From Didymodactylos carnosus (Eukaryota): a DNA stretch of 35,407 nt. The stretch covers positions 1 to 35,407 of the forward strand of contig CAJNOQ010001136.1 in the NCBI GenBank assembly GCA_905250885.1, written 5' to 3'. Positions within the stretch are counted from its first letter, which is position 1, and each line of letters opens with the position of its first letter. Of this stretch, positions 3,205-30,177 are shown in pieces. The translations under genes were made by a program, and so were the position numbers. Below the pieces are notes generated by a model. That model saw nothing but the letters and a program-made list of their open reading frames with translations, was not told the origin of the DNA and searched no databases.

Positions 3205-3828
3205 TTATAGAAGAATGAAGTAAAAATTTACTTTTTTTTCCATTTGTAATTGTTGAATGCTTTTAACTGGTTGTGCGGGAAAAAATGCTTCTTTTGTTGG
3301 AGGTTTATTAACGCTCGAAACTGGTTGACCAAAAAAATCAAAATCAGCAAACGGACTTGTTACGGATGGTGGAGCCACTGGTGTTGGAGGTGAATTTTGT
3401 AAAAATGACTGTTGTTGTAGTTGTTGTTGTTGCATCGGATTTAGAGGAGACGGTAACAATGGCGGTGGCATATTAACCGGTGCAGTTTGCTGTTGAGGTT
3501 GAATAGGAGTCGGCGTTACACCGAATTGTGGGGGAACAGGCGATTGACGGTATTGTGGAGTTATACCGTATGGTTGTTGAGACTGACCTGGTATCGGCTG
3601 TTGACCAAATTGCGCTTGTTGTTGAAAGGAAATATTCGACTGATACTGTGGCTGTTGTGGTTGTTGAGGTTGCATGAACATCGGTTGAAATTGATTCGAT
3701 GGTTGGGTAGGTGCGTTGAATACTGACGATAAATCATTTGATGGTCCAGTCAAATTCGACGGTGTTGCTTGCACGTGTGGATTTGTACTGGATGTTGGCA
3801 CATTCCAAAGATCATCACTATCAATTAC
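3205..3828 (-). CDS. Dab-like terminal Q/P-rich exon (208 codons incl. stop; FADFDFF motif)
   Basis: Acceptor tatttttAG (AG at 3830-3829), in frame with ORF 3205-3801. Strongly Q/P-biased (QPQQPQQPQYQ...). The FxDxF-like FADFDFF and DPF-like motifs match the AP-2/clathrin-binding tails of Dab2-type adaptors. A further donor AAAAAA|GTAAAT near 3230 could extend the gene into a downstream exon. Confidence 0.55.
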   Translation of the reverse strand, partial: VIDSDDLWNVPTSSTNPHVQATPSNLTGPSNDLSSVFNAPTQPSNQFQPMFMQPQQPQQPQYQSNISFQQQAQFGQQPIPGQSQQPYGITPQYRQSPVPPQFGVTPTPIQPQQQTAPVNMPPPLLPSPLNPMQQQQLQQQSFLQNSPPTPVAPPSVTSPFADFDFFGQPVSSVNKPPTKEAFFPAQPVKSIQQLQMEKKVNFYFILL

Positions 3829-5405
3829 CTAAAAATATAAAATTTTATCTATATTCAAAATAAAACATGAATTCTAGAAAGTTTTTCTAATGTGATAAAA
3901 GAAGCGGTAAAATTATGAGAACTTAGTGATATTCTATGTGATAAATCAAAAGTGTTTCAGTATTTCAATAAAATTATGAAAAAACACAGTTCCTTTAGCG
4001 AAATTTTTATGATTCAAATTTTCACGAATCAAATTGAACCTCAATTGTTGTTGCTGTTAAAGAATTACGTACGTTAACACTTTTTGGTTGTGGTACTTGC
4101 GTTGGTGCAGGTGCTGGATCAAATCCAAACAAGTTCGTATTCGCTGGAAAAGGTTGATTCACTGGCGGTTGAACCGCCGCAGATGCTTCCCAAATACTTG
4201 GGGGCTGAAAAAAAATTGAAATTTTATTATTTGAGCAAATAATTAGACATTGAAAATACCGGCGCCGTTGTTCCTGAAGGAGTTTGATCGAAAAGATCAA
4301 CCGGAGGTTGAGTCTAAAAAATGACGAGAATATTAACCATAACCGAAAAGAATAAACCCTGAATCTAGACGCATTATGTGCCTGTTGAATTGTAGGTTGC
4401 TATTGTTGAATCAGTGAAAAAAAGTCTGGAATATACTCACCGGTACAGGTAAAACAGGCTAAAACAAGACGTTCAGCATTATGAAGCTAGACCAGACTTA
4501 TTTATGTACTTACCGGTGGTTGGGTTGTCTGCGGTGGTGTTACATCACTTGGTAATACCGTGGTTGGTGTTGCGGGTATTACAGGCGGCGTTACTACTGT
4601 TTCTTTCACTTTTTCAGTCCTATTGTTAAATTGTTCAAATGCTGTATCAAATAATTCTTTTAATGAAACTACAGTTAAGGCAGCCTGAAATTAACAAAAG
4701 GTATATATGCTTTAGTCTATTAGTAATCTCCTGTGTAATCTAAACTAACCGGTCGTTCTGTTTTGATTGCCCAAAACTGATGTCTGTCGTCGGCGGTATT
4801 GTACACATATCCAAATGCTCGTGCATCTTTCGGATCAGTAACCACAAATGATATTCGTTCAATTTCATGCGAGGCTACAGAAACCTATGTCATTATACAA
4901 TCAATTACGATGATAGTTAAGAGAATGATACCAAAAAACCTACCTTCGTTACTTCATCAGCTAATTTAACAGCAGACAGCGTTAAATTAATTTGAATTTT
5001 TTGCTTGTGATCACTTCTTGCTTTGGCGACAGCTTTTAATTTAAACATTGAATCTAAGCAAATTTTTTCATCACGATCGACTGATAAGTCCTCAGTACCT
5101 AAAAGATAATGAATAAGAATGAAATAACTTTAAACCTATTAAGCTATTTTACAAGATTAAAGCAAGATGTTATGCCAACACTTTCTTTATTTTAAATCTA
5201 TTACCCGACAAACTTTAGAATCTTGTTACTTACCAATAAGTTTTCCCTTAAATACCACACCATCTCCATCGAATTTTGTTGCTCCTGTAAGAAAAAGAAG
5301 TATAGAGGATGCTACAAAAAGAAAGTTAAATCTAGAAATACCAGGTGTCGATGGTTTTTTGGGTTCGTTATTATTCACGGTTGGAACTTGATCAACAGTT
5401 GTCAT
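3205..5405 (-). CDS. Gene span: Disabled/Dab-like PTB-domain adaptor (7-exon model, ~480 aa) with Q/P-rich C-terminal region
   Basis: Spliced minus-strand translation: MTTVDQ...KFDGDGVVFKGKLIG | TEDLSVDRDEKICLDSMFKLKAVAKARSDHKQKIQINLTLSAVKLADEVTK | VSVASHEIERISFVVTDPKDARAFGYVYNTADDRHQFWAIKTERP | AALTVVSLKELFDTAFEQFNN... This matches the Dab1/Dab2 PTB core (KLIGIDEV..DKLCQDSMMKLKG..KQKIFLTISFGG..HEISYIAKD..RAFGYVC..HRFVAIKT..LRDLFQLIYE). All junctions are GT-AG and frame-consistent. The C-terminal exons are Q/P-rich with NLFGFDPAP and FADFDFF motifs. Confidence 0.7.
4073..4204 (-). CDS. Dab-like exon (PPSIWEASAAVQPPVNQPFPANTNLFGFDPAPAPTQVPQPKSVN)
   Basis: Acceptor ttttttcAG (AG at 4206-4205). 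Donor AAC|GTACGT at 4072-4071 lies upstream of the in-frame stop at 4022. Contains a DPF-like FGFDP motif. The alternative is that the CDS simply ends at the 4022 stop. Confidence 0.5.
4260..4313 (-). CDS. Dab-like tentative micro-exon (TQPPVDLFDQTPSGTTAP)
   Basis: 54-nt segment that keeps frame, flanked by tttttAG and CCG|GTATTT. Supported only by splice-signal geometry and composition. Confidence 0.35.
4514..4684 (-). CDS. Dab-like exon 4 (PTB C-terminal helix, then a P/T-rich linker)
   Basis: Acceptor aatttcAG|gctgcc and donor CCG|GTAAGT. 171 nt. Encodes AALTVVSLKELFDTAFEQFNNRTEKVKETVVTPPVIPATPTTVLPSDVTPPQTTQPP. Confidence 0.7.
4750..4884 (-). CDS. Dab-like exon 3 (PTB core: HEIERISFVVTDPKDARAFGYVYNTADDRHQFWAIKTERP)
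   Basis: Acceptor acatAG|gtttct and donor CCG|GTTAGT. 135 nt, phase 0/0. Carries the Dab-family RAFGYV and FxAIKT signature. Confidence 0.75.
4944..5098 (-). CDS. Dab-like exon 2 (PTB domain N-terminal half)
   Basis: Acceptor ttatcttttAG (AG at 5100-5099) and donor AAG|GTAGGT (GT at 4943-4942). Phase 1 in, phase 0 out. Encodes (G)TEDLSVDRDEKICLDSMFKLKAVAKARSDHKQKIQINLTLSAVKLADEVTK. Confidence 0.75.
5234..5405 (-). CDS. Dab-like exon 1 (first ATG at 5405-5403, MTTVDQ...; ends phase 1 at donor G|GTAAGT)
   Basis: ATG in a caaaaATGa context. The upstream 'M' at 5444 in the ORF track is actually TTG. The exon codes KFDGDGVVFKGKLIG, homologous to Dab1 RFKGEGVRYKAKLIG. Donor GT is at 5233-5232. 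Confidence 0.55.
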
Positions 5406-11151: not shown

Positions 11152-11806
11152 CTAATACACTAATTGATGAGGCATGCTGTTAGCTGTATTGAACATGGGA
11201 GCAGTTGGATAGGGTTGTTGCATTAATGGCATGCCACCACCCTGCATCTGCATTTGATAACCTTGTTGAACAAGAGGTGCACCTGGTGTTGACATCATTG
11301 GCCTATATCCGAATGTCATTCCACCGGTACCTTGTTGGTATGGATACATGTAGTTGGTTTGAGGCATTGATGTCGCTGGCGCTTGTTGAAATTGTTGATA
11401 AGGAGAACCAGTCATCGGCCCTAATCCTTGCATACCTGTCGTCATTACAGGTCGATACATCATTTGATTTTGTCGAGCTGCAGCTGCTCCCATTTGTGAA
11501 GCTGCTCCCATTTGTGCTCCCATTTGTGCTCCCATTTGTGCTCCCATCATCATGGCTCCATTTGCGGGTGCCATTGGTGATTGTCCTGGTAAAACCATGC
11601 CCGGCATTGTGGGAGGCATATATTCGAAACTCGAAGATGACGAACGACTTTGATGATATGCTGGCGCACCAGTCGAGCCAATGATACTTTGTGCACGGTA
11701 ACCATTTGAGTAATCTTGATGTAGACCACTAACAGGGTAGGATACGACAGCAGGAGAACCTGATTGACTATAACCACGACGGACAGGGCGATCAACTTTG
11801 ATTACT
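11152..11806 (-). CDS. LC-protein exon 4 (RVIKVDRPVRRGY... then an M/Q/G-rich tail with 3x GAQM repeats)
   Basis: Acceptor ttattctacAG (11808-11807). Continuous with ORF 11152-11619, whose 'M' is an internal residue. The tail is PMMSTPGAPLVQQGYQMQMQGGGMPLMQQPYP... Confidence 0.7.
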
Positions 11807-12508
11807 CTGTAGAATAATCAAATAATTTAAAATAACTAGGTATATTCTTACGAGATTAAAGCAAACCTGGTTCGAACTATAGGTGGTGGAGCTTCTTCAT
11901 GCATTTCTTTCTGGATAATTCGCGGTGGCGGGGTACGTGGCTGTTCAATTACACGTTCAACAATTTCTTGTGCTTGTGGCCGAATTATTACCTAAAGTCA
12001 AGATTAAAATGGGGCAACACGTCAACGTGCCACAAAAAAGAAGCATTGAGTCATTTCTTATTCAAAATATCAAAAGCTTTTGAGGAAATATGTTTTTGTC
12101 TTTAGTGTGGAACAGGAGTTCCTCTAAGACTTAAAAATTCTTGTAATTCAACACTTACTCGCTCCATGACTGGTGCCTCAGGTGTTGGTGCTCGTTCAAC
12201 CACTCGTTTAATTATAGGTGGTGGTGTTGGTGCACGAATTACGTCTCTAGGTCTTCGGACTTCTCGTGATATTAGACGGCCACGATATTCATAATCACTA
12301 CTTGAAGTATTTGTTGTAAACGATGAATAACGATCGGGAGAATAAGATCTAAAACAAAAAAAATAAATATTTAAAACGAACTTTAATCACTTTTTAAGTC
12401 TTACCTTTGATTTCTATCGCCACTGTAGACTGGCATTGCGCCATTCTGATATGGTATTACACCATCACCATATCCAGCACCGTTCGTATAAGCATAACGA
12501 TAAGACAT
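11152..12508 (-). CDS. Gene span: proline-repeat / Met-Gln-Gly-rich low-complexity protein (4 exons, ~357 aa)
   Basis: Minus-strand ATG at 12508-12506 in a gaccATGt context. Exons joined by GT-AG introns of 56, 74 and 60 bp. The exon lengths (104, 190, 125, 655 nt) sum to 1074 nt and stay in frame, ending at the ORF 11152-11619 stop. Confidence 0.7.
11867..11991 (-). CDS. LC-protein exon 3 (VIIRPQAQEIVERVIEQPRTPPPRIIQKEMHEEAPPPIVRT)
   Basis: Acceptor gactttAG (11993-11992), donor AG|GTTTGC (11866-11865), phase 0 to 2. Confidence 0.7.
12159..12348 (-). CDS. LC-protein exon 2 (SYSPDRYSS...RAPTPPPIIKRVVERAPTPEAPVMER)
   Basis: Acceptor ttgttttAG (12350-12349), donor CGA|GTAAGT (12158-12157). 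Confidence 0.7.
12405..12508 (-). CDS. LC-protein exon 1 (MSYRYAYTNGAGYGDGVIPYQNGAMPVYSGDRNQ...)
   Basis: ATG 12508, donor AG|GTAAGA (GT at 12404-12403), phase 2. Confidence 0.65.
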
Positions 12509-20120: not shown

Positions 20121-20447
20121 ATGGCGGATCCAAAATCAAGTGGCGTTTATCGCATTCCACCATATTATTACATCCACGTATTAGATCAGAATAGCAATGT
20201 ACCACGATTGGAAGTTGGTCCAAAAACATTTGTTAAACAAGATCATGAAAAAGTTCTCTTAGGCCCAGAAAAACATATTATCATTCCACCGCGACATTAT
20301 TGTGTCATTGAAAATCCAGCAATGAGAGATAAAAAAGGACAAGTGCTTATCGATACACATGGACAAGTTCGATTGTTACATGCCGATTTAGCAATTAAAT
20401 TTACACAAGAACCGTTTCCGTTGTTTCCTGGAGAAGTATTAAAACAG
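20121..20447 (+). CDS. MVP: MVP-A exon 1
   Basis: ATG 20121. Donor CAG|GTAAGC (GT at 20448-20449), phase 0. Confidence 0.88.
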
Positions 20448-23400
20448 GTAAGCCCCGGACTATTGTGACTGAACAAAAATAGTTATCGCACTCATGCAGA
20501 ATGTCAATTAAAAAAATATCTGATATGGGACCTGGAAGACCTTAAATAATAATGTAAATATTCATCATATTGATGCTGAAGCCATGTTTTTCTGATTTTT
20601 TAAGGCTGTGACTCCCTTAAAAGTGATTGAACCGAATTGTGCATTACGTTTACGAGCTGTGCTAGATTTTGTTGATGAGGCTGGAACTCCAATTAAAGCT
20701 GGTGATGAATGGCTATTTGAAGGACCAGGTAAGATAAACATGTTCATAAAAATTTCTTAATATCTACGAGTAATAAGGAAACAACAATCTGCCGATGATA
20801 GACCTAATTTTCTGATCGTCAACAACGGCACATCTCTTTTTATTCCGTCATTCTTTTAGCGATCTTCGCCAGTATCATTGTTTTTTTTTGTTTTCTTAGG
20901 CACCTATTATCCTCGAAAAGAAGTTGCCGTTGAAGAACAAATAAAAGCTACGATTTTGAAACCCACTGAAGCTGTTCGATTACGTGCAAAAAAAGAAATG
21001 ATTGATCGTGATGGTCAACCTCGTGAAACCGGTGAAGAATGGTTAAATAGAACGACTGGCTCTTACCTACCATTGGCTACCGAAGAAGTTGTCAAAGTTG
21101 TTCAGCCAATTGTATTAACAGATAAAGTAAGCAAATAAGATTAGCGAGATGTTTTGTTTTTGCTAAGAGAAATTATAAACATTTTTTTTTGCTGTTTAGA
21201 AAGCAGTTCACCTTCGAGCGATACGTACGTTTAAAGATACTTTTGGTAATAAACGTTTACATGGTGAAGAATGGTTAATATATGCCAAAGATACCGAGAC
21301 ATACATACCAGATGTTTATGAAGAAGTTGTTGGAGATATCATGGTGACAGCATTAACTTCACGACAATACTGTGTTATTTTGGATCCAGTGGGTAAAAAC
21401 GGAAAGCCACAATTAGGAAGAAAAGAACTTGTCAGAGTAAGTTGATTCGCTGTTTTTGTGACAATACAATTATTCTCAATTATTTGTCGCTTTTCAGGGT
21501 GAAAAAACATTTTTCTTACAACCGGGTGAGAAATTGGCAAAAGGTATCCAAGATATCTATGTATTAGAGGAAGATGAAGGACTTATTTTAAAATGTACCG
21601 AAGCGTTTAAAGAAGATGGAGTAAGTCTTCTAACACAATGATTATTAGTCTGAGTACCATTTATAATATCCATCTTCTCTCTCTTAGAAAATTATTCGAT
21701 CACCCGGTGATCGATGGATGATTCGTGGTCCAAAAGATTACATACCAGCTGTTGAATCTGAAGTTGTTTTACGCCGTAAAGCCATTCCATTGGATGTTAA
21801 TGAAGGCATATATGTACGTGATGTAAAAACGGGTAAAATTCGATCTGTAATTGGCAATACGTATTTACTAACGGAAAATGAAGAATTATGGGAAAAAGAA
21901 TTGCCAGTACAAACGGAACAATTATTAAATTTGGATCCAAGATATTTTGAAGACACTGAAAAACAACAACAACAACAAGCTCTCATACCACCACGAGACA
22001 AATCGAAAGTAATTACTTATAGAGTACCACATAATGCTGCCGTTCAAATGTACGATTATAAAGCAAAGAAAGCACGAATTGTATTCGGACCAGAATTAGG
22101 TAAACGAAGAACGCTTTTTGTTTCGTAAAGGAAATTTCATTACTATTTCTCGTTTATATCTGTAGTTATGCTTGGTCCAGATGAACAATTTACAGTGCTT
22201 AATTTGTCTGGTGGTAAACCCAAATTTCCAAATCGCATTCGTGCGATCTGCTTACTATTGGGACCGGAATTTTCATCGGATATTGTTACTATTGAATCAG
22301 CTGATCATGCACGTTTATCATTGAAACTGTCTTATAAGTAAGGATACAGCAATTTATTCTTAGATATTTATTCTCATTCTCCACTCTTTTTGTTTCAGTT
22401 GGCATTTTGATATTAAACATGACGATAATGAAAAAGTAGTTGCAAGTATATTTTCCGTACCGGATTTTATTGGTATGTGCTAAGATCATGTCTGATATTA
22501 AGTAATTGATAATACCTTCTTTTTTTAACAGGCGATTTTTGTAAAGCAATTGCAGCTAGAATTCGAGGTGCAGTAGCTGGTGTTAATTTCGATGATTTTC
22601 ATAAAGTAAGTGGTTGTTTCATGCAAGTAAACTGACAGAGAAGCGTTTTAGAAATACATTGGTGATTAGACCTCGAAAAGAGTTTTGACTAAGAGATTCA
22701 CATACTGATGGTCAGTTTACATACAACTTAGATAGTTTGTCAAATTGTCATGAATTTTTGGCCAAATTTTTGCTTAATTTAAAAAAATAACATATTGAAT
22801 TATTTATTTTGTGTATATTTTCCATTTAGAATTCAGCGCGAATAATTCGTGCTAGTGTATTTGGCATAGAAAAAGGCACATCAAAAGTGAATAATCGTTT
22901 TGTGTTTGCCCAAAATAATTTAGTATTAACATCCATTGACATCCAATCAGTTGAACCTGTTGATCAACGTACTCGAGAGGCTTTGCAAAAAAGTGTACAA
23001 TTAGCCATTGAAGTGCGTACTTACTAAATGAAAATACTTAAAATAATTTTGATTTGTTGTTTTCGTTTTAGATTACTACAAATTCACAAGAAGCCCATGC
23101 CAAGTAAGTTAATCATTCTTCTCAAATACATTCTTTTAACGATTACAAGATTTGCATAATTCACTTTCTGTTTAGGCATGTTGCTGAAAAAACTGAACAA
23201 GAAGCTCGTGGTCATTTGGAACGACAAAAAATTCATGATGAAGCTGAAGGTAACAATGCACTCTATTAATTATTTCTCCTAAATGTTTCTTTTGTTCATA
23301 TAGCTGAGAAAGAACGTCGTAATTTGTTGTTATTGAATGCATTATCTGCTGCTGTTGAAGCAACGGGACAAGCGAAAGCCGAAGCTCAAAGTCGTGCAGA

Positions 23401-23931
23401 ATCAGCGAAAATTGAAGGTAACATCCATCTCCTGGATAATAACTAATAGCTCTAATTTTATTGTTATTTTTGTAGGTGAAGCAGCTGTTGATACCGCTCG
23501 TCTTCGTGCTGAAGCATCTAGAATTGAAGCTGAAGTTGAATTATATCGTTTAACAAAAGCACGTGAATTAGAATTAGAATATTCAAAACTAACATCTGAA
23601 TTAGAAGTTGATCGAGCACAACGCATGACAAATATTGAAATAGAAGAATTTCAAAAACATGTTGCAGCTATTGGGGCAAAAACCATTCAAGGTGAACTTG
23701 TTGATCTGCACTACTATAACATCATTCTACAACTATATATTTTTTTTTTCAGCAATTGCCACATCTGGTCCAGATATGCAAGTAAAATTATTACAATCAT
23801 TAGGTATCAAATCAACATTAATCACAGATGGTCGATCGCCTATAAATTTGTTTAATACAGCCATGAGTATGGTTGGTAATATCCAACAACCAACTTCCGC
23901 AACATCGTCCTTACTTTCAACAACCAATTAA
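20121..23931 (+). CDS. MVP: Gene span: major vault protein paralog A (15 exons, 2568 nt CDS, ~855 aa)
   Basis: Spliced translation aligns along its whole length to major vault protein. Exon 1 ORF: [47 protein letters not shown]...HYCVIENP...[12 protein letters not shown]. Later exons code [92 protein letters not shown] and the stop. All 14 introns are GT-AG (59-180 bp) and phase-consistent. Confidence 0.92.
20605..20728 (+). CDS. MVP: MVP-A exon 2 ([42 protein letters not shown])
   Basis: Acceptor ttttttaAG (20603-20604). Donor CCAG|GTAAGA (GT at 20729-20730), phase 1. Confidence 0.85.
20900..21126 (+). CDS. MVP: MVP-A exon 3
   Basis: Acceptor ttttcttAG (20898-20899). Donor AAA|GTAAGC (21127-21128). 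Matches ORF 20878-21138. Confidence 0.85.
21200..21436 (+). CDS. MVP: MVP-A exon 4 ([11 protein letters not shown]...[23 protein letters not shown])
   Basis: Acceptor gctgtttAG (21198-21199). Donor AGA|GTAAGT (21437-21438). 237 nt, phase 0/0. Confidence 0.85.
21498..21620 (+). CDS. MVP: MVP-A exon 5 ([41 protein letters not shown])
   Basis: Acceptor cgcttttcAG (21496-21497). Donor GGA|GTAAGT (21621-21622). Confidence 0.85.
21688..22099 (+). CDS. MVP: MVP-A exon 6
   Basis: Acceptor tctcttAG (21686-21687). Donor TTAG|GTAAAC (GT at 22100-22101), phase 1. Matches ORF 21718-22128. Confidence 0.85.
22166..22337 (+). CDS. MVP: MVP-A exon 7 ([21 protein letters not shown]...[12 protein letters not shown]-)
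   Basis: Acceptor atctgtAG (22164-22165). Donor AA|GTAAGG (22338-22339), phase 2. This avoids the in-frame TAA. Confidence 0.85.
22399..22472 (+). CDS. MVP: MVP-A exon 8 ([26 protein letters not shown])
   Basis: Acceptor tgtttcAG (22397-22398). Donor G|GTATGT (22473-22474). Confidence 0.85.
22532..22605 (+). CDS. MVP: MVP-A exon 9 ([25 protein letters not shown])
   Basis: Acceptor ttttttaacAG (22530-22531). Donor AAA|GTAAGT (22606-22607). Confidence 0.85.
22830..23012 (+). CDS. MVP: MVP-A exon 10 ([12 protein letters not shown]...[20 protein letters not shown])
   Basis: Acceptor tccatttAG (22828-22829). Donor GAA|GTGCGT (23013-23014). Confidence 0.85.
23062..23093 (+). CDS. MVP: MVP-A exon 11 (32-nt micro-exon [11 protein letters not shown])
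   Basis: Acceptor tcgttttAG (23060-23061). Donor AA|GTAAGT (23094-23095). Confidence 0.8.
23176..23249 (+). CDS. MVP: MVP-A exon 12
   Basis: Acceptor ctgtttAG (23174-23175). Donor GAAG|GTAACA (23250-23251). Confidence 0.85.
23304..23417 (+). CDS. MVP: MVP-A exon 13 ([39 protein letters not shown])
   Basis: Acceptor ttcatAG (23302-23303). Donor GAAG|GTAACA (23418-23419). Confidence 0.85.
23476..23691 (+). CDS. MVP: MVP-A exon 14 (coiled-coil cap-helix region)
   Basis: Acceptor ttttgtAG (23474-23475). Donor CAAG|GTGAAC (23692-23693). Part of ORF 23337-23855. Confidence 0.85.
23753..23931 (+). CDS. MVP: MVP-A exon 15 (...[43 protein letters not shown]..., stop TAA 23929-23931)
   Basis: Acceptor ttttttttcAG (23751-23752). 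Matches ORF 23659-23931. Confidence 0.88.
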
Positions 23932-25989
23932 ATAGCATTACTGACAATTTTTTAGAATTTTGTATAACCTTTTTTCTTTTTCTTTTTAATGACACAGACT
24001 GAAGAGAAAGAGATGGAAGCAACGTCTTCCACAGCGTGAGAGTGTCAGATGTATGTTACATGTTTTGTTTTTTATCATGACAGTGATATGTATTGTTTAA
24101 TGTTTTATTATTGTTGTTTTATTTCAGTACACTTATGTTGTAGTACTTTTCTTTATTTGTACGTATTTGTTTCTTTTTTTGTAGCAATTTTGTTTTATTG
24201 CTTTTTTATTCATAGAACTCATTCATATAAAAACAAAATTTGGATTCAATATCAGCATATATCGATGATTAAGCATTTGTATGTTCGCAAATGACAGAGT
24301 TGGTAATAACCATAGCTGAAGAATGAGTGAGTTCCATAGAGATCATACCGATGTGTACACAACCTCTGTAGCTGAAAAGTTGAAAACTCTGTTTAAGTGA
24401 AAGACCATACAGGATTAACAAAACTGCACATTGAAACTATTCGAAACTGTTGGCATCAAATTTGGTTCGATATTCACTTTTCAGTTCTTACGTTTGTTTA
24501 GCATGAACAACACCCAATTAATTTTCTGCAGTAGTGGTGAAAAGGGATCTTTAAAACTAAATGGAGTTTGATACAAAAGATTTACAGAAATGTTAAACTG
24601 CTTCTCGTGTTCCATTGTTTCAAAAACGATTAGATAAAGGTAATATTACTTGAGAAAAAAATGAAAAATCGAACATAATAATAATACTGCGAAATCGCCT
24701 TTGTACCCTCTAGTCGACTGCCCTAAAATCATTAGATTCATTATTAAATTGAGGTCCAAAATTTCGAATATTATTGAAATTCTTTGTTTTTACCAACTTC
24801 GGCCTCGATTTTTTTCTTAAAAAATTGAAAGTCTAAAGATTGCTCCCACATACTTCAAAAAAAAGTGTTTACTGTCTATTTGTTTTTCTTCAGTGACTAA
24901 TGTGTTGTCATGGTAATGGAAAAAACATACGAATAATAAATAAATGCTACACGCGACTTCGCCGTTTTGATCACAATAATCACGTTAAAAGACAAATTCA
25001 TTATATGTATTTCTGATTCGTTTCATCCGAAAAAAAGTAGAAGGAACGCGAAGTAAATCGTGAATGTTGATGCAAATACAATCACAAAACAAAAACAAAA
25101 AGTAATCGAAATTAAGGTGAAAACACAAAGACAAATGTGTTTCACTTTTCGTGAGGAGCAAAGAGATAACCCCAGATTATTTCGATCGATAAAAAAAATG
25201 ACCTTGAAAGATGAATGAAACACCCACATAAGACTGTAAGGTGAACATCAGTGAAAATAAGAGATATCTAGTTGTTATATCATATCATCTTAATTTTCAA
25301 AAATTTAAATTACGCTGAAATTGTCACTGTTTTCTTTGCTAAGTTTATTGTTTCACTAGTTGTACTGTGCAGAATAATTATAGCTGCAAACACTCATATC
25401 ATTCAAGAATTTTCACCTTGAAGCTGCTCTTATCAAAAAATATACTCTAGTTTTGCAAAGAAAATATTTTTTTCATCATTACAAAATTGTGCTGAGAAGA
25501 AACATCGTATTCAATTAAAACTTTTAAAGCGCACAAAAAATATATTTTTGTTTTTTCCATCAGATTGGCACAATCAGAGTCATATGCATGTTGTGTGAAG
25601 GCATGAACGGGCATATGTGAATATGTTGGAATAAGACTAATGAATAAATAAAATAGCTATAACTCAAAACAAGTTCACATGTATGTTCCATATCATCTTA
25701 ATTTAGTTTTTTAAAAGGTCTGAGACGCGAGCGAAAATTTTCAAACATGAAATATCAGTCAGAAAAAAGAAACAAATTTAGATGAGATGATGTATCTATG
25801 TGAATATGGTAAAGCCATCGTCCTCTCCCTGCAGATATTTGTTCGCTCTAATTTCATTATTTTCTCTGTTTAACGTACAGTAAAAACATTTCACTTTGTT
25901 AGTTCAAAAACATATTACAAGATATGACTCTCTGATAAACTACAACTTGATCTGATCTCCGACTTTATTTGCAAGTTTGTACTACTATC

Positions 25990-26400
25990 CATTTCAAAAT
26001 ATAGTATGGGTGATTGCGACATGTGAGCGGAATGAGCTATCGAGACCGGGTTTTCGCCATCGTGTAGCCAAGGCCGGGACACATAGTAATATGTAGAAAT
26101 CAAAATGTTTGCGTCTATCGCTGGAGGATTTCTAAGTGGATCTCTGGAAAATCAGCTTATCATTCCAGAGTTTTGCATAGAAATCTATCAATTTTTTTTC
26201 ATATATGGATAGTCCAAGGTGTTCTCTACAAAACCAGATCCAAGTGACATCTCGAAAAGCCATGGTTCGGGAGCTATGGGCGTTTTTCTTGAAGCCTTAC
26301 GACCCCTCTGTCGTTAGGCTTAATGAAAACATAGGTCACCGACTATGCTGAATTCGGTGGCAACATTTGTTTTTCAAAACACTTCCCAAAATCTAGTGGA
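25990..26400. mobile_element. Degenerate second copy (inverted) of the 16095-16822 MITE family, in the MVP-A/MVP-B intergenic region
   Basis: rc(26190-26330) contains CCATGGCTTTTCGAGAT and GGACTATC..GATTTTCCAGAGATC blocks, which match 16500-16700 of the MITE. 26049-26085 ATCGAGACCGGGTTTTCG...GTAGCCAAGG matches the MITE sub-terminal ATCGAGAAACGGTTTTCG...TATGGCCAAG. The TIR itself is eroded. Confidence 0.5.
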
Positions 26401-26782
26401 AACGTACATTAGGTGAAATACCAATTCTGTCTAGTTTTGAGTAAATTCAAAAATTCATAACTCAGTCAAGATCAATTCAAGTTGTCATATTTAAGTTATT
26501 TATTTTCTGTTATAAACTTAAATTTGCACTAAAAACACGTTTTTTTAATAATGAAAACGAAACGAGACTAAAAACAAACAAAAAACGAGACACAAGAACA
26601 GAGATCAAAATGCACATCACATTTTTTTACGAAATAAAAATAACATACAGTATAAGAGATAGAGTACAACAATAAAAATAGCCAAACATAAATGTTTAGG
26701 AGTGTATAAGGACGGAGAAGCTGAAGCTTCTTTATCGTATATATTGGTTGTCATCGAGAATCGTGGATACTAGAATGTTTTT

Positions 26783-27250
26783 TTAAAGAGCACCAGCTCC
26801 ACCACCTAATAAACTTTGACCAAAACCCATGAGATTTATTGGACTACGACCATCTGTAATTAATGTTGATTGTAAGCCAAGTGCTTGTAACAGTTTTACT
26901 TGTGTTTCTGGGCCCGATGTGGCAATAGCTTGGATTGTATCTGCACCAATGGCTTCTACTTGTAGTTGAAATTTCTCAATTTCTATTTTTGAGATGTTTT
27001 GTTTTTTATTTATTTCAAGCTCATTAGATTCTCGCAAAAATTTAATTTCTGCTTCACGTGCTAATTTCAAACGTTCTAATTCGGCTTCGGCTTCAATTTT
27101 CGTTGCCTCAGCTTTTAAACGTGCTTGTTCAACGGCTGCTTCGCCTTCAATACGTGTTGATTCTGCACGACTCTGAGCTTCGGCTTTGGCTTGACCAGTG
27201 CTCTCAACGGCAGCGGACAGCGCTTGTAATTCCAAAAGAGCTTTACGAAC
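26783..27250 (-). CDS. MVP: MVP-B exon 10 (equivalent to A exons 13-15; stop at 26785-26783)
   Basis: Acceptor tgtatatAG (27252-27251). Continuous with ORF 26783-27235. Confidence 0.85.
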
Positions 27251-30177
27251 CTATATACACAAAAAGAGAAAGAAGTTAGCTTAGTTAAAGCAAATCTTTC
27301 ATATGTTAATTTGCGTCTTTCAAGGAAACTATTCTACTAGCAAAATCATAACTTATAATTTTTACTTCAAATATAGTTAACCCATGCAACGTTCCACAAA
27401 TCAGTGCGAAGAGCACTTATTAATCGCGATGCAGTACTTACTTCTTCGGCTCCCGCTTCATCTTTAATTCGTTGACGTTCCAATAAGCCTTTTGCTTCTT
27501 GTTCACGTCTTGAAGCTTCATGTTTAGCACTCGCTTCCTGACTCATTGTGGTTATCTACAAGAAAAACTTTAAATAAGTATTTTGTATTCGCTAAAAAAA
27601 CGGATAGCATTTACTTCAATGGCTAATTGTACACTCTTCTGCAACGCATCTCGAGTGCGTTGATCGACCGGTTCAGCTGACTGGATATCGATGGATGTTA
27701 TAACTAAGTTATTTTGTGGAAATACAAAACGATCACGAACACGGGTCTGAGGCACTGATTGTTTATCAGTGGATGCTGTTGTTTCCGGTATAACTTCTAA
27801 ACCAAATACACTAGCACGAATGATATTGGCTGAGTTTTTATGAAAATCGTCAAACTGAACACCAGCAACTGCACCACGAATTCGGCTAGCAATAGCTTTA
27901 GCGGCATCACCTAAACAAAGGCATCTAAAGGTAACAACTGATCAACATGAGAAAAGAAGATAAACTAACCAACAAAATCAGGTACACTAAATAATTTTGC
28001 CCCTTCTTTCTCATCGGTACGATCATTGATATCGAAGAACCAACTGAAATTAAGGAAACTCGCATGAATGTTGAGAGATGATGTTTTCATCTGACTTACT
28101 TGTAAGATAACTGAAGTGATAGTCTAGCATGATCAGCTGTTTCAATAACGATGACATCGGTAAAAAAATCTGGGCCCAATAGTAATGCCAATGATTTGAT
28201 TTGATTTGGTTTTTTTGGAGTAGATCCAGAGAGATTGATTAATGTGAAATGTTCATCAGGTCCCAACATGACTAATTCAGGTCCAAAAACAATTCTCGAA
28301 TGTTTTGCTTTGTAATCGTAGACTTGTACGGCTGCATTATGTGGAACACGATATGTAACTACTTTGGATTTATCACGTTTTGATGATTGTGATGCTGACG
28401 AAGTTGTTTTGCTATCTGAATCTTTTACTTTAACATTTCTGTCGGCTAATGGATCTCTTAATAGTAACTGTTCAACTTGTGGTGGTAATTCTTTATCCCA
28501 CAGTTCTTCATCTTGCGTTAACATGTACGTTTGACCAACGACCGCTCGAACACGACCGCTTTTAATATCACGAACATAGATACCTTCATTTTCATCTGAA
28601 TAAAATACACAATAGGTCAGAAATAGCCTATAATAACAGAAGAATAACAGTCAACTTACCTAAAGGTATTGCTTTTCTTCTCAGTAGTACTTCGACTTGT
28701 GTTGGTGGTATATATTCTCTTGGTCCTCTTATCATCCATCTGTCACCTGAAAAAATTCAAATATTTTTTAGAAATAATCAATAATCAGTCAAGTCATAGA
28801 CTTGATTTTTTATAAGAAAGCATCGATAGTTCATCTACATTAAAATCGATATTTTACTACCCTGTGCAAACCACTGACAATAAGCCAAATCTCTTCGTCC
28901 TACCTGGCATACGTGGCCCTTGATCTTTTTCGTCGTCATCGAATGATTCAATACATTTCAATATAACACCTTCGTCTTCGCCCAATATGTATACATCTTG
29001 AATTCCTTTTTCTAATCGTTCACCAGGTTGTAGAAAAAATGATTTTTCGCCAACAACTAATTTCTTTTTACCCAACTGATTTTTACCATCAGCTAAAAAA
29101 GAAGTCATGAACAATTATAATCTCTCACTCACCGTTATACATTTAACGATCTTACCTGAAACTGGATTTAAAATGACACAATATTGTCGTGAATTGAGCG
29201 TTGTTACATCAACATTGGCTACAAGTTCTTCATAAACATTTAGAATATGTGTTTCAGTTTGTTCTGTTGTCAATAACCATTCGTCACCATTTTTTCGTTG
29301 TTGACCGAAATCATCTGTGAATGTTTTTAGTGCACGTAGATGCAAAGCTCTTTTATCTGTTAGAACGTAAGCATTTTCAACGTTGACCACTGTTTCATAA
29401 GCCAATGGTAAATAGGCACCCGATTTTTTAACTAACCAGTTTTCACCGGTTACACGACGTTGACCCATTCGATCAATTATTTCTTTTTTAGCACTTAAAC
29501 GTATTGCTTGATTTGTACCAATCACAGTAGCACGAATTTGTTCTTCAACAGATACTTCTTTGCGTGGTGTGTAAGTTCCTAATAAACAAAGTTAGACGAT
29601 CAATGGTACTGAATGAATGTTTGATAAATATAAAGTTATTTACCTGGTCCTTCAAATAGCCATTCATCTCCTGCTTTTCGTTGCTCTCCATTATCATCAA
29701 AATCCAAAACAGCTTTTAATCTTAATGCGGAATTAGCCACAACATGTTTCAACGGTGTAACAGGCTAGAATTATGGAAACAGTTACTACCCAAAAACACC
29801 TTTAATAGTATAGACATTCAATGTACCTGTCTTAAAATTTCACCAGGATACAAGGGAAATGGTTCTTTATAATCTTTTTCAAGTCTTATATCTAAATCGG
29901 CATGTGATAATCTTGCTTGGCCATTTTGGTCAAACTGTACTACTCCAGCTTCATTTTTCACCACAGGATTTTCAACAACACAGTAGTGTCTTGGTGGTAC
30001 AGTGATCATTTTCTCCGGTCCAATGGTAACTGTTTCATTATCTTGTTTAATAAATGTTTTTGGTCCCAATTCCAATCGTGATACATTGGTATTTTGATCC
30101 AACACATGAATATAATAATATGGTGGAATACGATAAACGGGACCCGTCTGAGGTGCTGAACTTTTGGAAGACGACAT
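26783..30177 (-). CDS. MVP: Gene span: major vault protein paralog B (10 exons, 2619 nt CDS, ~872 aa)
   Basis: Minus-strand ATG at 30177. Spliced translation: [42 protein letters not shown]...GEILRQ | [41 protein letters not shown] | TYTPRKEV...YCVILNPVS | [25 protein letters not shown]... | [14 protein letters not shown]...IPL | [39 protein letters not shown]...[13 protein letters not shown]...LSYN | [25 protein letters not shown] | [31 protein letters not shown]...AIE | [14 protein letters not shown]... | [19 protein letters not shown]...[33 protein letters not shown]...*. It is MVP along its full length, and in the [11 protein letters not shown]...[14 protein letters not shown] region it is closer to vertebrate MVP than copy A is. 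Confidence 0.9.
27442..27555 (-). CDS. MVP: MVP-B exon 9 ([38 protein letters not shown]; equivalent to A exons 11+12)
   Basis: Acceptor ttcttgtAG (27557-27556). Donor GAA|GTAAGT (27441-27440). Confidence 0.8.
27615..27910 (-). CDS. MVP: MVP-B exon 8 (equivalent to A exons 9+10)
   Basis: Acceptor ttgtttAG (27912-27911). Donor GAA|GTAAAT (27614-27613). In frame with ORF 27570-27755. Confidence 0.82.
27970..28043 (-). CDS. MVP: MVP-B exon 7 ([26 protein letters not shown])
   Basis: Acceptor aatttcAG (28045-28044). Donor G|GTTAGT (27969-27968). 74 nt, the same length as A exon 8. Confidence 0.8.
28100..28595 (-). CDS. MVP: MVP-B exon 6 (equivalent to A exons 6 (part) + 7)
   Basis: Acceptor ttttattcAG (28597-28596). 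Donor AA|GTAAGT (28099-28098), which avoids the TAA at 28098-28096. In frame with ORF 28096-28524. Confidence 0.82.
28660..28746 (-). CDS. MVP: MVP-B exon 5 ([28 protein letters not shown]-)
   Basis: Acceptor ttttttcAG (28748-28747). Donor TTAG|GTAAGT (28659-28658). Confidence 0.8.
28904..29092 (-). CDS. MVP: MVP-B exon 4 ([64 protein letters not shown])
   Basis: Follows a 63-bp phase-1 intron (29093-29155) that contains an in-frame TAA. Acceptor ttttttAG (29094-29093). Donor CCAG|GTAGGA (28903-28902), supported by the conserved PGDRW across the junction. Confidence 0.75.
29156..29578 (-). CDS. MVP: MVP-B exon 3 (equivalent to exons 3+4 of copy A, no internal intron)
   Basis: Acceptor ttattAG (29580-29579). 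Donor TCAG|GTAAGA (GT at 29155-29154). In frame with ORF 29115-29525. Confidence 0.82.
29644..29764 (-). CDS. MVP: MVP-B exon 2
   Basis: Acceptor ctAG at 29766-29765. Donor CCAG|GTAAAT (GT at 29643-29642), phase 1. Confidence 0.82.
29827..30177 (-). CDS. MVP: MVP-B exon 1
   Basis: ATG 30177-30175. Donor CAG|GTACAT (GT at 29826-29825). Matches ORF 29818-30177. Confidence 0.88.

Follow-up and report, generated by a model that had tools for sequence, protein, structure and literature searches.

Why does the genome of a bdelloid rotifer carry two divergent genes for the major vault protein (MVP) close together on opposite strands, and how did two such genes come to be interrupted by introns at such different places? 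Both questions are raised by the window analysed here, a contig of Didymodactylos carnosus, a bdelloid rotifer, that is 35,407 nucleotides long. Our reading, to which we give a probability of about 0.85, is that the pair is an old inverted tandem duplicate of MVP, that both copies are functional and that the discordance of their introns arose mainly by asymmetric loss followed by later gains.

Two full-length members of the MVP family

The pair and the DNA between its members are laid out as follows:

20121..23931, plus strand: MVP paralog A (A-clade); 15 exons, 14 GT-AG introns, 855 amino acids
23932..26782, no strand: spacer from stop codon to stop codon, 2851 bp between the two 3' ends
26783..30177, minus strand: MVP paralog B (B-clade); 10 exons, 9 GT-AG introns, 872 amino acids

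The copy A protein is identical to CAF0741315.1 (A0A813XFR3), and exact-match spliced mapping of the public 855-amino-acid protein (P0001) gave one unique GT-AG solution with 15 exons. Heterologous spliced alignment with an MVP template from Rotaria or Lingula recovered 14 of 14 introns and the same exon boundaries, except that the alignment, being local, ended before the last exon's divergent C-terminal tail. For copy B a 10-exon model was built by hand and then translated, and the translation is found as an exact sequence in NCBI and UniProt (CAF0741332.1, A0A813XP38) under the name 'Major vault protein'. The boundaries are GT-AG in all 23 introns of the two copies and both reading frames are intact; conservation and public gene models are the basis for the D. 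carnosus splice junctions. The original prediction had described two complete MVP genes on opposite strands with their 3' ends facing, 2.85 kb apart, and this stands, with both models matching public proteins exactly and 2851 bp between the stop codons. No gene or RNA family was recognised in the spacer, which holds short open reading frames only, and an Rfam scan of the window gave no match at the gathering score, and hence none to vault RNA, which like TEP1 and vPARP is a partner of MVP. One snoRNA-like match was seen below that threshold.

Both genes encode full-length members of the MVP family, with vault repeats, shoulder, cap-helix and cap-ring. Each matches PF01505, PF17794, PF17795, PF17796 and PF11978 far above the curated cut-offs and in the canonical order (in A the families are Vault, Vault_2, Vault_3, Vault_4 and MVP_shoulder). 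Residues 8-838 of A and 14-869 of B align to rat and human MVP chains in PDB with 1127-1149 bits, collinearly over the full length and through the cap-helix and cap-ring region, so that they share the full domain architecture of animal MVP (4V60, 4HL8, 7PKR); molluscan, brachiopod and cnidarian MVPs are about 65-69% identical to the D. carnosus proteins. A and B would both be expected to form shells of the 78-subunit vault particle. They differ from animal MVP in that the contig has two linked, divergent copies and not one gene, in an altered C-terminal cap motif in the B clade (INLFNTA to INLMGFG), in 15 fixed A-clade changes at sites otherwise conserved, with the A-clade differences lying in the barrel repeats, and in a shoulder insertion in D. 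carnosus B:

27747..27794, minus strand: 48-nt in-frame GT..AG segment of B exon 8, encoding 16 amino acids

Heterologous templates splice this segment out; copies B2 and B3 retain it, as does the public model. Most likely it is a coding insertion of 16 amino acids specific to D. carnosus B, to judge from the sequences compared, with optional splicing as a less probable reading.

The two proteins are 65.9% identical overall and 47-75% identical in N-terminal windows, in line with the figure of roughly 65% first put forward for the N-terminal repeats, and dS between them is 1.26. An inverted-repeat scan found 14 homologous exon blocks with 73-89% nucleotide identity, far beyond chance. Purifying selection acts on both copies: compared with the second D. 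carnosus copies, dN/dS is 0.127 for A against A2 (dS 0.48) and 0.128 for B against B2 (dS 0.53), and against the Rotaria and Adineta orthologues it is 0.10-0.16. With an intact reading frame, canonical splice sites, the full MVP domain set and a dN/dS of about 0.13, each copy has the appearance of a functional gene. The view that one copy is a pseudogene, or that the pair is an artefact of assembly, allelism or contamination, is effectively refuted by these observations together with the phylogeny and the recurrence of the arrangement. Neither intact frames with 23 of 23 introns GT-AG nor the dN/dS of each copy fits a pseudogene; 66% identity and different intron maps exclude alleles and a palindromic mis-assembly; both proteins fall inside Rotifera with 100% support, which argues against a contaminant; and the same arrangement is found in independent assemblies and species. 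The original claim that this is no recent duplication, allelic pair or assembly artefact is thus upheld by the dS of 1.26, the differing intron maps and orthologues that lie in the same convergent arrangement.

Age of the duplication and conservation of the arrangement

In our trees, all of them made by neighbour-joining, Rotifera and the A, B and monogonont clades each receive 100% bootstrap support, with D. carnosus and Rotaria represented in both A and B. Copies A and B thus sit in two fully supported bdelloid clades. Because each has its own bdelloid clade, the duplication predates the deepest known bdelloid split while still falling inside Rotifera. An A-specific intron and intron losses that extend across the B clade agree with two reciprocal clades.

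How far inside Rotifera the duplication lies depends on a node whose bootstrap values vary with the distance correction, from 42 to 85% for A with B and from 13 to 55% for A with the monogononts. It is possible, though we hold it to be the less probable placement, that the duplication is older than Bdelloidea and occurred in the ancestor of bdelloids and monogononts, the monogononts having kept only the A-like lineage. Gamma-corrected distances (alpha 0.5) lean this way, giving 55% for A with the monogononts against 42% for A with B, and the A stem is long, which can distort distance trees. Uncorrected (85%) and Kimura (65%) distances favour A with B, as did the first tree (71%), and monogonont MVP is B-like or canonical at the 15 A-specific sites, as it must be by construction of that test. 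Introns give no help here, since the monogonont MVP genes have either none or a single private one.

The convergent A/B pair is found in Rotaria socialis (loci L002-L004), twice in Rotaria sp. Silwood-1 (L011, L012) and in two environmental bdelloid contigs (L028, L029). A2 and B2 of D. carnosus are both recorded on one contig of 25,524 bp and so are probably linked as well. At the Adineta steineri locus (L006) B is present with no A gene adjoining it, and in Adineta (two annotated species, one locus) neither an A-type gene nor a remnant of one was found, with the Sad1_UNC-B synteny kept; Adineta thus appears to differ from D. carnosus in having B-type genes only. The second D. carnosus copies, at dS about 0.5 and with the same intron maps, recall the degenerate tetraploidy of bdelloids (Nowell et al. 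2021, PMC7943196). The A/B split is much older than A/A2 or B/B2 and is a local inverted duplication, unlike tetraploid homoeologs, and the two D. carnosus copies (A with A2, B with B2) cluster with each other and not with the two Rotaria loci.

Intron loss, intron gain and offset positions

The introns were placed on a common alignment of 19 genes and polarised with the maps of Nematostella and Lingula as outgroups. Those of copy A, with the micro-exon, are:

20448..20604, plus strand: A1, phase 0 after GEVLKQ; ancestral, its position shared with B1 and Lingula
20729..20899, plus strand: A2 intron, phase 1, EGP|G; ancestral, its position shared with B2, Nematostella and Lingula
21127..21199, plus strand: A3, phase 0 after LTDK; in Nematostella, Lingula and most mapped A-clade genes, hence ancestral; in no B-clade gene
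21437..21497, plus strand: A4, phase 0 after ELVR; ancestral; missing in all B-clade genes
21621..21687, plus strand: A5, phase 0 after KEDG; ancestral (Lingula, all A-clade genes); not in the B clade
22100..22165, plus strand: A6, phase 1 after GPEL; D. carnosus A and A2 only
22338..22398, plus strand: A7, phase 2, N codon of SYNW; same position as B6
22473..22531, plus strand: A8, phase 1, DFI|G; common only to D. carnosus A, A2, B and B2
22606..22829, plus strand: A9, phase 0 after DFHK; ancestral; D. carnosus A and A2 are the only bdelloid genes to retain it
23013..23071, plus strand: A10, phase 0 after AIE; same position as B8; most mapped bdelloid A and B genes
23072..23103, plus strand: micro-exon of 32 nt between bdelloid-wide A10 and ancestral A11
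23104..23175, plus strand: A11, phase 2; in Nematostella, Lingula and every A gene, hence ancestral; missing in the B clade
23250..23303, plus strand: A12, phase 1, EAE|A; A-clade specific (D. carnosus and all other A genes)
23418..23475, plus strand: A13, phase 1, IE|G; D. carnosus A and A2 only
23692..23752, plus strand: A14, phase 1 after TIQ; D. carnosus A and A2 only

Those of copy B are:

29765..29826, minus strand: B1, phase 0; same position as A1; ancestral
29579..29643, minus strand: B2 intron, phase 1; same position as A2; ancestral; lost in Rotaria and Adineta B
29093..29155, minus strand: B3, phase 1 after PVS; 63 bp long and containing an in-frame stop; confined to D. carnosus B and B2
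28747..28903, minus strand: B4, 157 bp, phase 1, G codon of GDRW; D. carnosus B and B2 only
28596..28659, minus strand: B5, phase 1 after AIPL; D. carnosus B and B2 only
28044..28099, minus strand: B6, phase 2, N codon of SYNW; same position as A7
27911..27969, minus strand: B7, phase 1, DFV|G; same position as A8; D. carnosus only
27556..27614, minus strand: B8, phase 0 after AIE; bdelloid-wide; coincides with A10
27251..27441, minus strand: B9, phase 0 after AEE; D. carnosus B and B2 only

The counts of 14 and 9, the phases and the flanking residues given by the original prediction were all reproduced, as were its five shared positions (LKQ|/LRQ|, EGP|G, SY-N, DF(I/V)|G and AIE|, with exactly five found), the 32-nt micro-exon, the 63-bp intron of B that contains a stop in frame and the 157-bp one that interrupts the G codon of GDRW; its list of private introns has the positions right but enters B4 twice, once as private and once as half of an offset pair. 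What changes is the meaning of that list, for by the outgroup maps the 'private' introns of A are mostly ancestral ones that B has lost. Copy A keeps eight ancestral introns and B three, and five of the eight occur in no B-clade gene. Asymmetric loss of ancestral introns is therefore, on the outgroup polarity, the main source of the discordance, and after D. carnosus split from other bdelloids each copy gained lineage-private introns, four in A and five in B, with one site common to the two. One intron, AIE|ITT (A10), was gained before the duplication, for most of the mapped bdelloid genes of either type have it and Nematostella, Lingula and Brachionus do not. The micro-exon is also 32 nt long in Rotaria A, a Nematostella intron lies one alignment column from A5 in a gapped stretch, and several other A genes keep instead of A14 an ancestral intron 10 codons downstream of it. 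There was no significant similarity of the introner type among the 23 introns or between them and the rest of the window, and introns at shared A/B positions have unrelated sequences.

The locus had been proposed as a natural experiment in intron gain, loss and sliding. Gain and loss between linked paralogs are what we find; sliding of the two offset pairs, A5/B4 and A12/B9, we reject in favour of loss with independent gain, given how the introns are distributed across bdelloids and outgroups. That each pair is a single ancestral intron slid along the gene is very improbable, even though the partners are only 19 nt and 8 nt apart and a real small shift did take place at SY-N, where Nematostella/Lingula, D. 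carnosus and Rotaria B have three positions within 4 nt. A5 occupies the ancestral site, B4 is confined to D. carnosus B, and the B genes of Rotaria and Adineta have a third position (IRGP-S/T, phase 2), so that sliding would have to have happened twice, over two different long distances. All A genes have A12 and only D. carnosus B has B9, neither position occurring in the outgroups. Proximity is in any case cheap: with 13-16 ancestral introns in about 850 codons, simple arithmetic places a random new intron within 10 codons of an old one about 40% of the time. The SY-N intron is the sole genuine small shift; A7 lies 3 nt upstream of the Nematostella/Lingula site, and hence is taken as an ancestral intron that has shifted, and the Rotaria B counterpart of B6 is 1 nt upstream of the D. 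carnosus position.

Loss and gain in separate lineages leave three introns to be accounted for, each of which one lineage has in both A and B and the other lineage in neither. DF(I/V)|G belongs to D. carnosus, and no A or B gene of Rotaria, Adineta or the environmental contigs has it, nor do the outgroups; CC|N-PPRHY and EQ-A|RL belong to the other bdelloids. A single duplication followed by simple independent evolution does not account for this pattern, which calls for introns gained or lost in parallel or for an exchange between A and B. A search for recent gene conversion between D. carnosus A and B found windowed pS values of 0.34-0.88 with no tract standing out; in Rotaria there is a candidate conversion tract around SYNWHF...SVPDF (amino-acid identity 0.83, pS 0.29). 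For an animal, intron turnover in bdelloid MVP genes is unusually active: about 16 intron positions across the family, the three just named among them, are unseen in Nematostella, Lingula and Brachionus. We suggest tentatively, while thinking it rather doubtful, that introns or their absences are copied between inverted neighbours by short gene-conversion tracts, or that there is recurrent gain at the same sites. If this were true, either process could be tied to the heavy repair of double-strand breaks by which bdelloids recover from desiccation.

Divergent intron maps of paralogs in bdelloids have been reported already. The alpha-tubulin classes differ markedly in intron number and location, as the MVP copies do, and their monogonont orthologue is without introns, a pattern that MVP repeats (Eyres et al. 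2012, PMC3464624). The present case differs in concerning another gene family whose paralogs are physically linked and inverted, and in having intron positions that can be polarised with outgroups.

Vault composition and MVP copy number

At 462 otherwise conserved sites there are 15 A-specific fixed changes against 7 that are B-specific, and the A stem is roughly twofold longer in the neighbour-joining tree. From this, B may be the conservative type and the main shell subunit, and A a faster-evolving accessory or specialised one. B would also be the MVP type that has expanded in bdelloids and, in Adineta, probably the type induced by stress. A spliced transcript contig of the A type from an environmental source (L014) has an uninterrupted open reading frame of 841 amino acids.

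Dictyostelium MVP paralogues co-purify in vaults. The original prediction suggested hetero-oligomeric or specialised vaults, and a strong form of this idea would make A and B obligate partners that co-assemble into one shell, with linkage kept for balanced expression. The convergent pair has been kept across the deepest bdelloid split and occurs at five or more other loci, purifying selection acts on both members, and the changes of the two clades fall in separate regions of the protein, those of A in the barrel repeats and those of B in the C-terminal cap motif; a precedent may be seen in Dictyostelium, which has more than one MVP paralogue (PMC11219742). We nevertheless regard obligate partnership as unlikely. 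No A-type gene was found in Adineta, where B evidently works without A, convergent genes share no promoter, and the co-translational assembly of vaults on a single polyribosome that has been proposed favours homo-oligomers (PMC11219742).

The accompanying statement that MVP is a single gene in most animals agrees with published work (PMC11219742) but does not extend to rotifers: D. carnosus has at least five MVP genes and Rotaria many. Multi-copy MVP has already been reported for bdelloids, in that at least five MVP genes of Adineta vaga are over-expressed after irradiation or desiccation (PMC10809525), so that these genes are active and respond to stress that damages DNA. In having several full-length MVP genes D. 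carnosus resembles A. vaga, Dictyostelium and the salmon louse, which has three paralogues (PMC11219742). The bdelloid duplicates differ from these other cases in forming two ancient subfamilies held as a convergent pair, and neither the A subfamily nor its synteny is described in PMC11219742 or PMC10809525. In a monogonont-like contig the MVP genes lie in a head-to-tail array.

Two subfamilies of bdelloid MVP

The linked A and B genes define two MVP subfamilies that are found throughout bdelloids. B is the conservative type and A the faster-evolving one, and the two have stayed side by side from a time before the deepest known split among bdelloids. Gene A encodes a public 855-amino-acid D. 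carnosus protein that is 100% identical to the concatenated open reading frame (ORF) pieces of the plus strand, and the exact spliced mapping of this protein has a single unique solution. Gene B was read from the sequence as a model whose introns are all GT-AG; its translation is an exact NCBI/UniProt entry, 'Major vault protein' of D. carnosus, which is represented in the homology-search collection by a 56-amino-acid cluster member. A purpose-written spliced aligner, given heterologous templates from Rotaria (A and B) and Lingula, confirmed the junctions of both genes with one exception in exon 8 of B.

20121-23931, plus strand: gene A, 15 exons, 855 amino acids
30177-26783, minus strand: gene B, 10 exons, 872 amino acids
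27747-27794, minus strand: 48-nt in-frame GT..AG segment inside exon 8 of B, spliced out by the heterologous templates

The 48-nt segment encodes a 16-amino-acid insertion found in D. carnosus B-type proteins only. It is probably coding because it is retained in B2 and B3 (the second and third D. carnosus genes of this type) and in the public model, and because it is shorter and has a higher GC content than every real intron of these genes. The models reproduce what had been read by eye: 14 introns in A against nine in B with the listed phases and flanking residues, five positions common to both, a 32-nt micro-exon in A and a 63-bp intron with an in-frame stop in B. Amino acid identity between the two proteins, originally put at about 65%, is 65.9%. 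Each protein matches all five Pfam MVP families and aligns end to end with the rat and human MVP structures.

Within the sampling of Nowell et al. 2021 (PMC7943196), the bdelloid rotifer D. carnosus is sister to every other bdelloid. In a bootstrapped neighbour-joining tree of 44 MVPs, rerun with several distance corrections, four clades each received 100% support: Rotifera, the monogononts, bdelloid A (D. carnosus A, its second copy A2 and Rotaria proteins of 839-841 amino acids) and bdelloid B (D. carnosus B, B2 and B3, with many Rotaria and Adineta proteins). These clades place the duplication within Rotifera and before the deepest bdelloid divergence. Support for A and B as sisters was 42-85% and that for A with the monogononts 13-55%, varying with the distance correction; the stem of the A clade is about twice as long as that of the B clade. 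The core of the original prediction, old functional paralogs whose introns disagree in position, is supported: the phylogeny that it proposed places both genes within Rotifera in separate, fully supported bdelloid clades, their intron maps differ, and dN/dS against the second copies is about 0.13.

Divergence between MVP genes
A vs B: dS 1.26, dN/dS 0.22
A vs A2: dS 0.48, dN/dS 0.127
B vs B2: dS 0.53, dN/dS 0.128

Across the 462 sites at which outgroups and monogononts are conserved, 15 clade-specific fixed changes were found in A and seven in B, the latter including the change of the C-terminal motif INLFNTA to INLMGFG. Genomic A genes are interrupted by 5-14 introns; a metagenomic A-type contig (L014) is therefore a spliced transcript, since its 841-amino-acid ORF is uninterrupted, with an AATAAA signal and flanks that resemble UTRs. 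A response of bdelloid MVP genes to radiation and desiccation has already been reported, five such genes in Adineta vaga being over-expressed following one or the other (PMC10809525). The A/B pair offers a concrete test case for homo- versus hetero-oligomeric vaults; hetero-oligomeric vaults are speculation. Full-text literature searches found no description of the A and B subfamilies, their synteny or their introns.

Conserved linkage and copy number

The synteny comparison with related genomes that had also been proposed revealed the convergent pair in Rotaria socialis, with a spacing of about 0.9 kb, at two separate loci in Rotaria sp. Silwood-1 and on two environmental bdelloid contigs. 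In D. carnosus itself, A2 and B2 both list one 25,524-bp contig. We read their sequences on shorter contigs, L001 and L005, whose sole match to each other is a 122-bp stretch where coding exons of the two genes are homologous. At the Adineta steineri locus B and a Sad1_UNC neighbour are conserved, the next gene is unrelated and no remnant of A was found beside B; no A-type protein from Adineta was present among the homology-search matches, and the A type appears dispensable in that genus. Six-frame ORFs of the Rotaria and Adineta loci had no match to the window outside the MVP genes, so for the window conserved synteny is confined to the MVP pair.

A single MVP gene is reported for most eukaryotes, the exceptions being Dictyostelium and the salmon louse (PMC11219742); among rotifers, several copies are the rule. 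D. carnosus A groups with A2 and B with B2 (dS about 0.5; L001, L005), and the two Rotaria loci likewise group together (dS about 1.0; L011, L012). A tetraploidy older than all bdelloids would be expected to give the pattern ((Dc,Rot),(Dc,Rot)), which the tree does not match, and the second MVP loci are therefore either lineage-specific block duplications or homogenised homoeologs. On a monogonont-like metagenome contig (L013, Ga0620986_00212), at least four MVP genes or fragments, all intronless, follow one another head to tail on a single strand; tandem duplication of MVP has therefore taken place outside bdelloids too, there in direct orientation.

Intron loss, gain and possible exchange

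Introns were mapped exactly in Nematostella (16), Lingula (13), Brachionus (1), R. socialis A (13), A. steineri B (7), Rotaria Silwood-1 B1 and B2 (8 each) and D. carnosus A2 and B2, and by spliced alignment in eight further genes; positions were placed on a common alignment and the critical ones checked codon by codon. Of the 14 introns in A, eight are ancestral, one (AIE|ITT, present in both A and B) is bdelloid-wide, one (EAE|A) is specific to the A clade and four occur in D. carnosus only. Seven of the eight ancestral introns coincide exactly with one in Nematostella, in Lingula or in both, and the SY-N intron is 3 nt upstream of theirs. The nine introns of B comprise three ancestral, one bdelloid-wide and five D. 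carnosus-only. No B-clade gene has the ancestral introns that follow LTDK, ELVR, EDG and DFHK or the one in AHA-K; their loss therefore took place on the B stem, and the B genes of Rotaria and Adineta have a private intron set of their own. The pair is a compact, well-polarised case in which ancestral introns were lost asymmetrically once the gene had duplicated. The sliding envisaged in the original prediction at two offset intron pairs is largely not supported, since in each the A member is ancestral or A-clade and the B member is an independent D. carnosus-specific intron.

Intron numbers in bdelloid MVP genes range from 5 to 14 in A and from 3 to 9 in B; monogonont MVP genes have none or almost none. 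Two environmental bdelloid contigs (L021, L028) include genes from which most introns have gone, one of A type with five and one of B type with three, showing that loss is ongoing in bdelloids alongside lineage-specific introns. These results extend an earlier observation on bdelloid alpha-tubulin, in which intron numbers likewise vary and the monogonont orthologue lacks introns (PMC3464624). An introner or repeat origin of the new introns was rejected, there being no similarity of the introns to each other or to other parts of the window.

Besides many lineage-specific introns, the bdelloid MVP genes have three that are shared between paralogs yet restricted by lineage. The phase 1 intron DF(I/V)|G occurs only in D. 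carnosus A, A2, B and B2. Among Rotaria, Adineta and the environmental contigs, the A genes and most of the B genes carry the phase 2 intron at CC|N before PPRHY, which no D. carnosus gene has; the phase 1 intron EQ-A|RL is distributed likewise. The annotation of A2 departs from this at DFI|G solely through acceptor choice: the public model (L005 5760-5860) takes a downstream acceptor and so deletes GDFCKAVA, although the sequence retains the conserved one, AATAG|GTGATTTT. The same model starts with an apparently spurious 9-codon exon 853 bp upstream.

A distribution that tracks lineage and not paralog can be explained only by introns gained or lost in parallel, or by transfer from one of these linked, inverted genes to the other. 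Introns at positions common to A and B are unrelated in sequence, and recent A-B gene conversion in D. carnosus was rejected, no conversion tract having been found there. A hint that exchange between paralogs can happen comes from Rotaria (L003, L011), where A and B share 0.83 amino acid identity (pS 0.29) across SYNWHF...SVPDF (alignment columns about 580-620), compared with 0.64 among A orthologues; this candidate gene-conversion tract coincides with the strongest jitter in intron position. The pair reveals no new kind of gene, element or mechanism; it is a further example of retained tandem duplicates with paralog-specific intron turnover in bdelloids, to which the three shared introns add a modestly intriguing twist.

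The spacer and flanks of the pair

Neither a vault RNA nor any other Rfam family reached its gathering score in the entire window, and a Pfam scan of ten ORFs flanking the MVP genes gave no matches. Four minor features were observed.

3208-4399 and 11155-12386, minus strand: long P/Q- and M/Q/G-rich ORFs without a Pfam match
24828-24952, minus strand: H/ACA snoRNA-like match in the spacer (RF01443, 25.9 bits, E = 0.11, gathering score 50)
26031-26318, minus strand: element of about 310 bp with sharp boundaries, in the spacer

The two ORFs probably represent exons from genes for low-complexity proteins, upstream of A, and the sub-threshold RF01443 match is most likely due to chance. The spacer element is 85% identical to L005 8231-8519, just downstream of A2, where it lies the other way round with respect to the A gene and between unrelated flanks; it resembles a small dispersed repeat or a fragment of the spacer that has been inverted.
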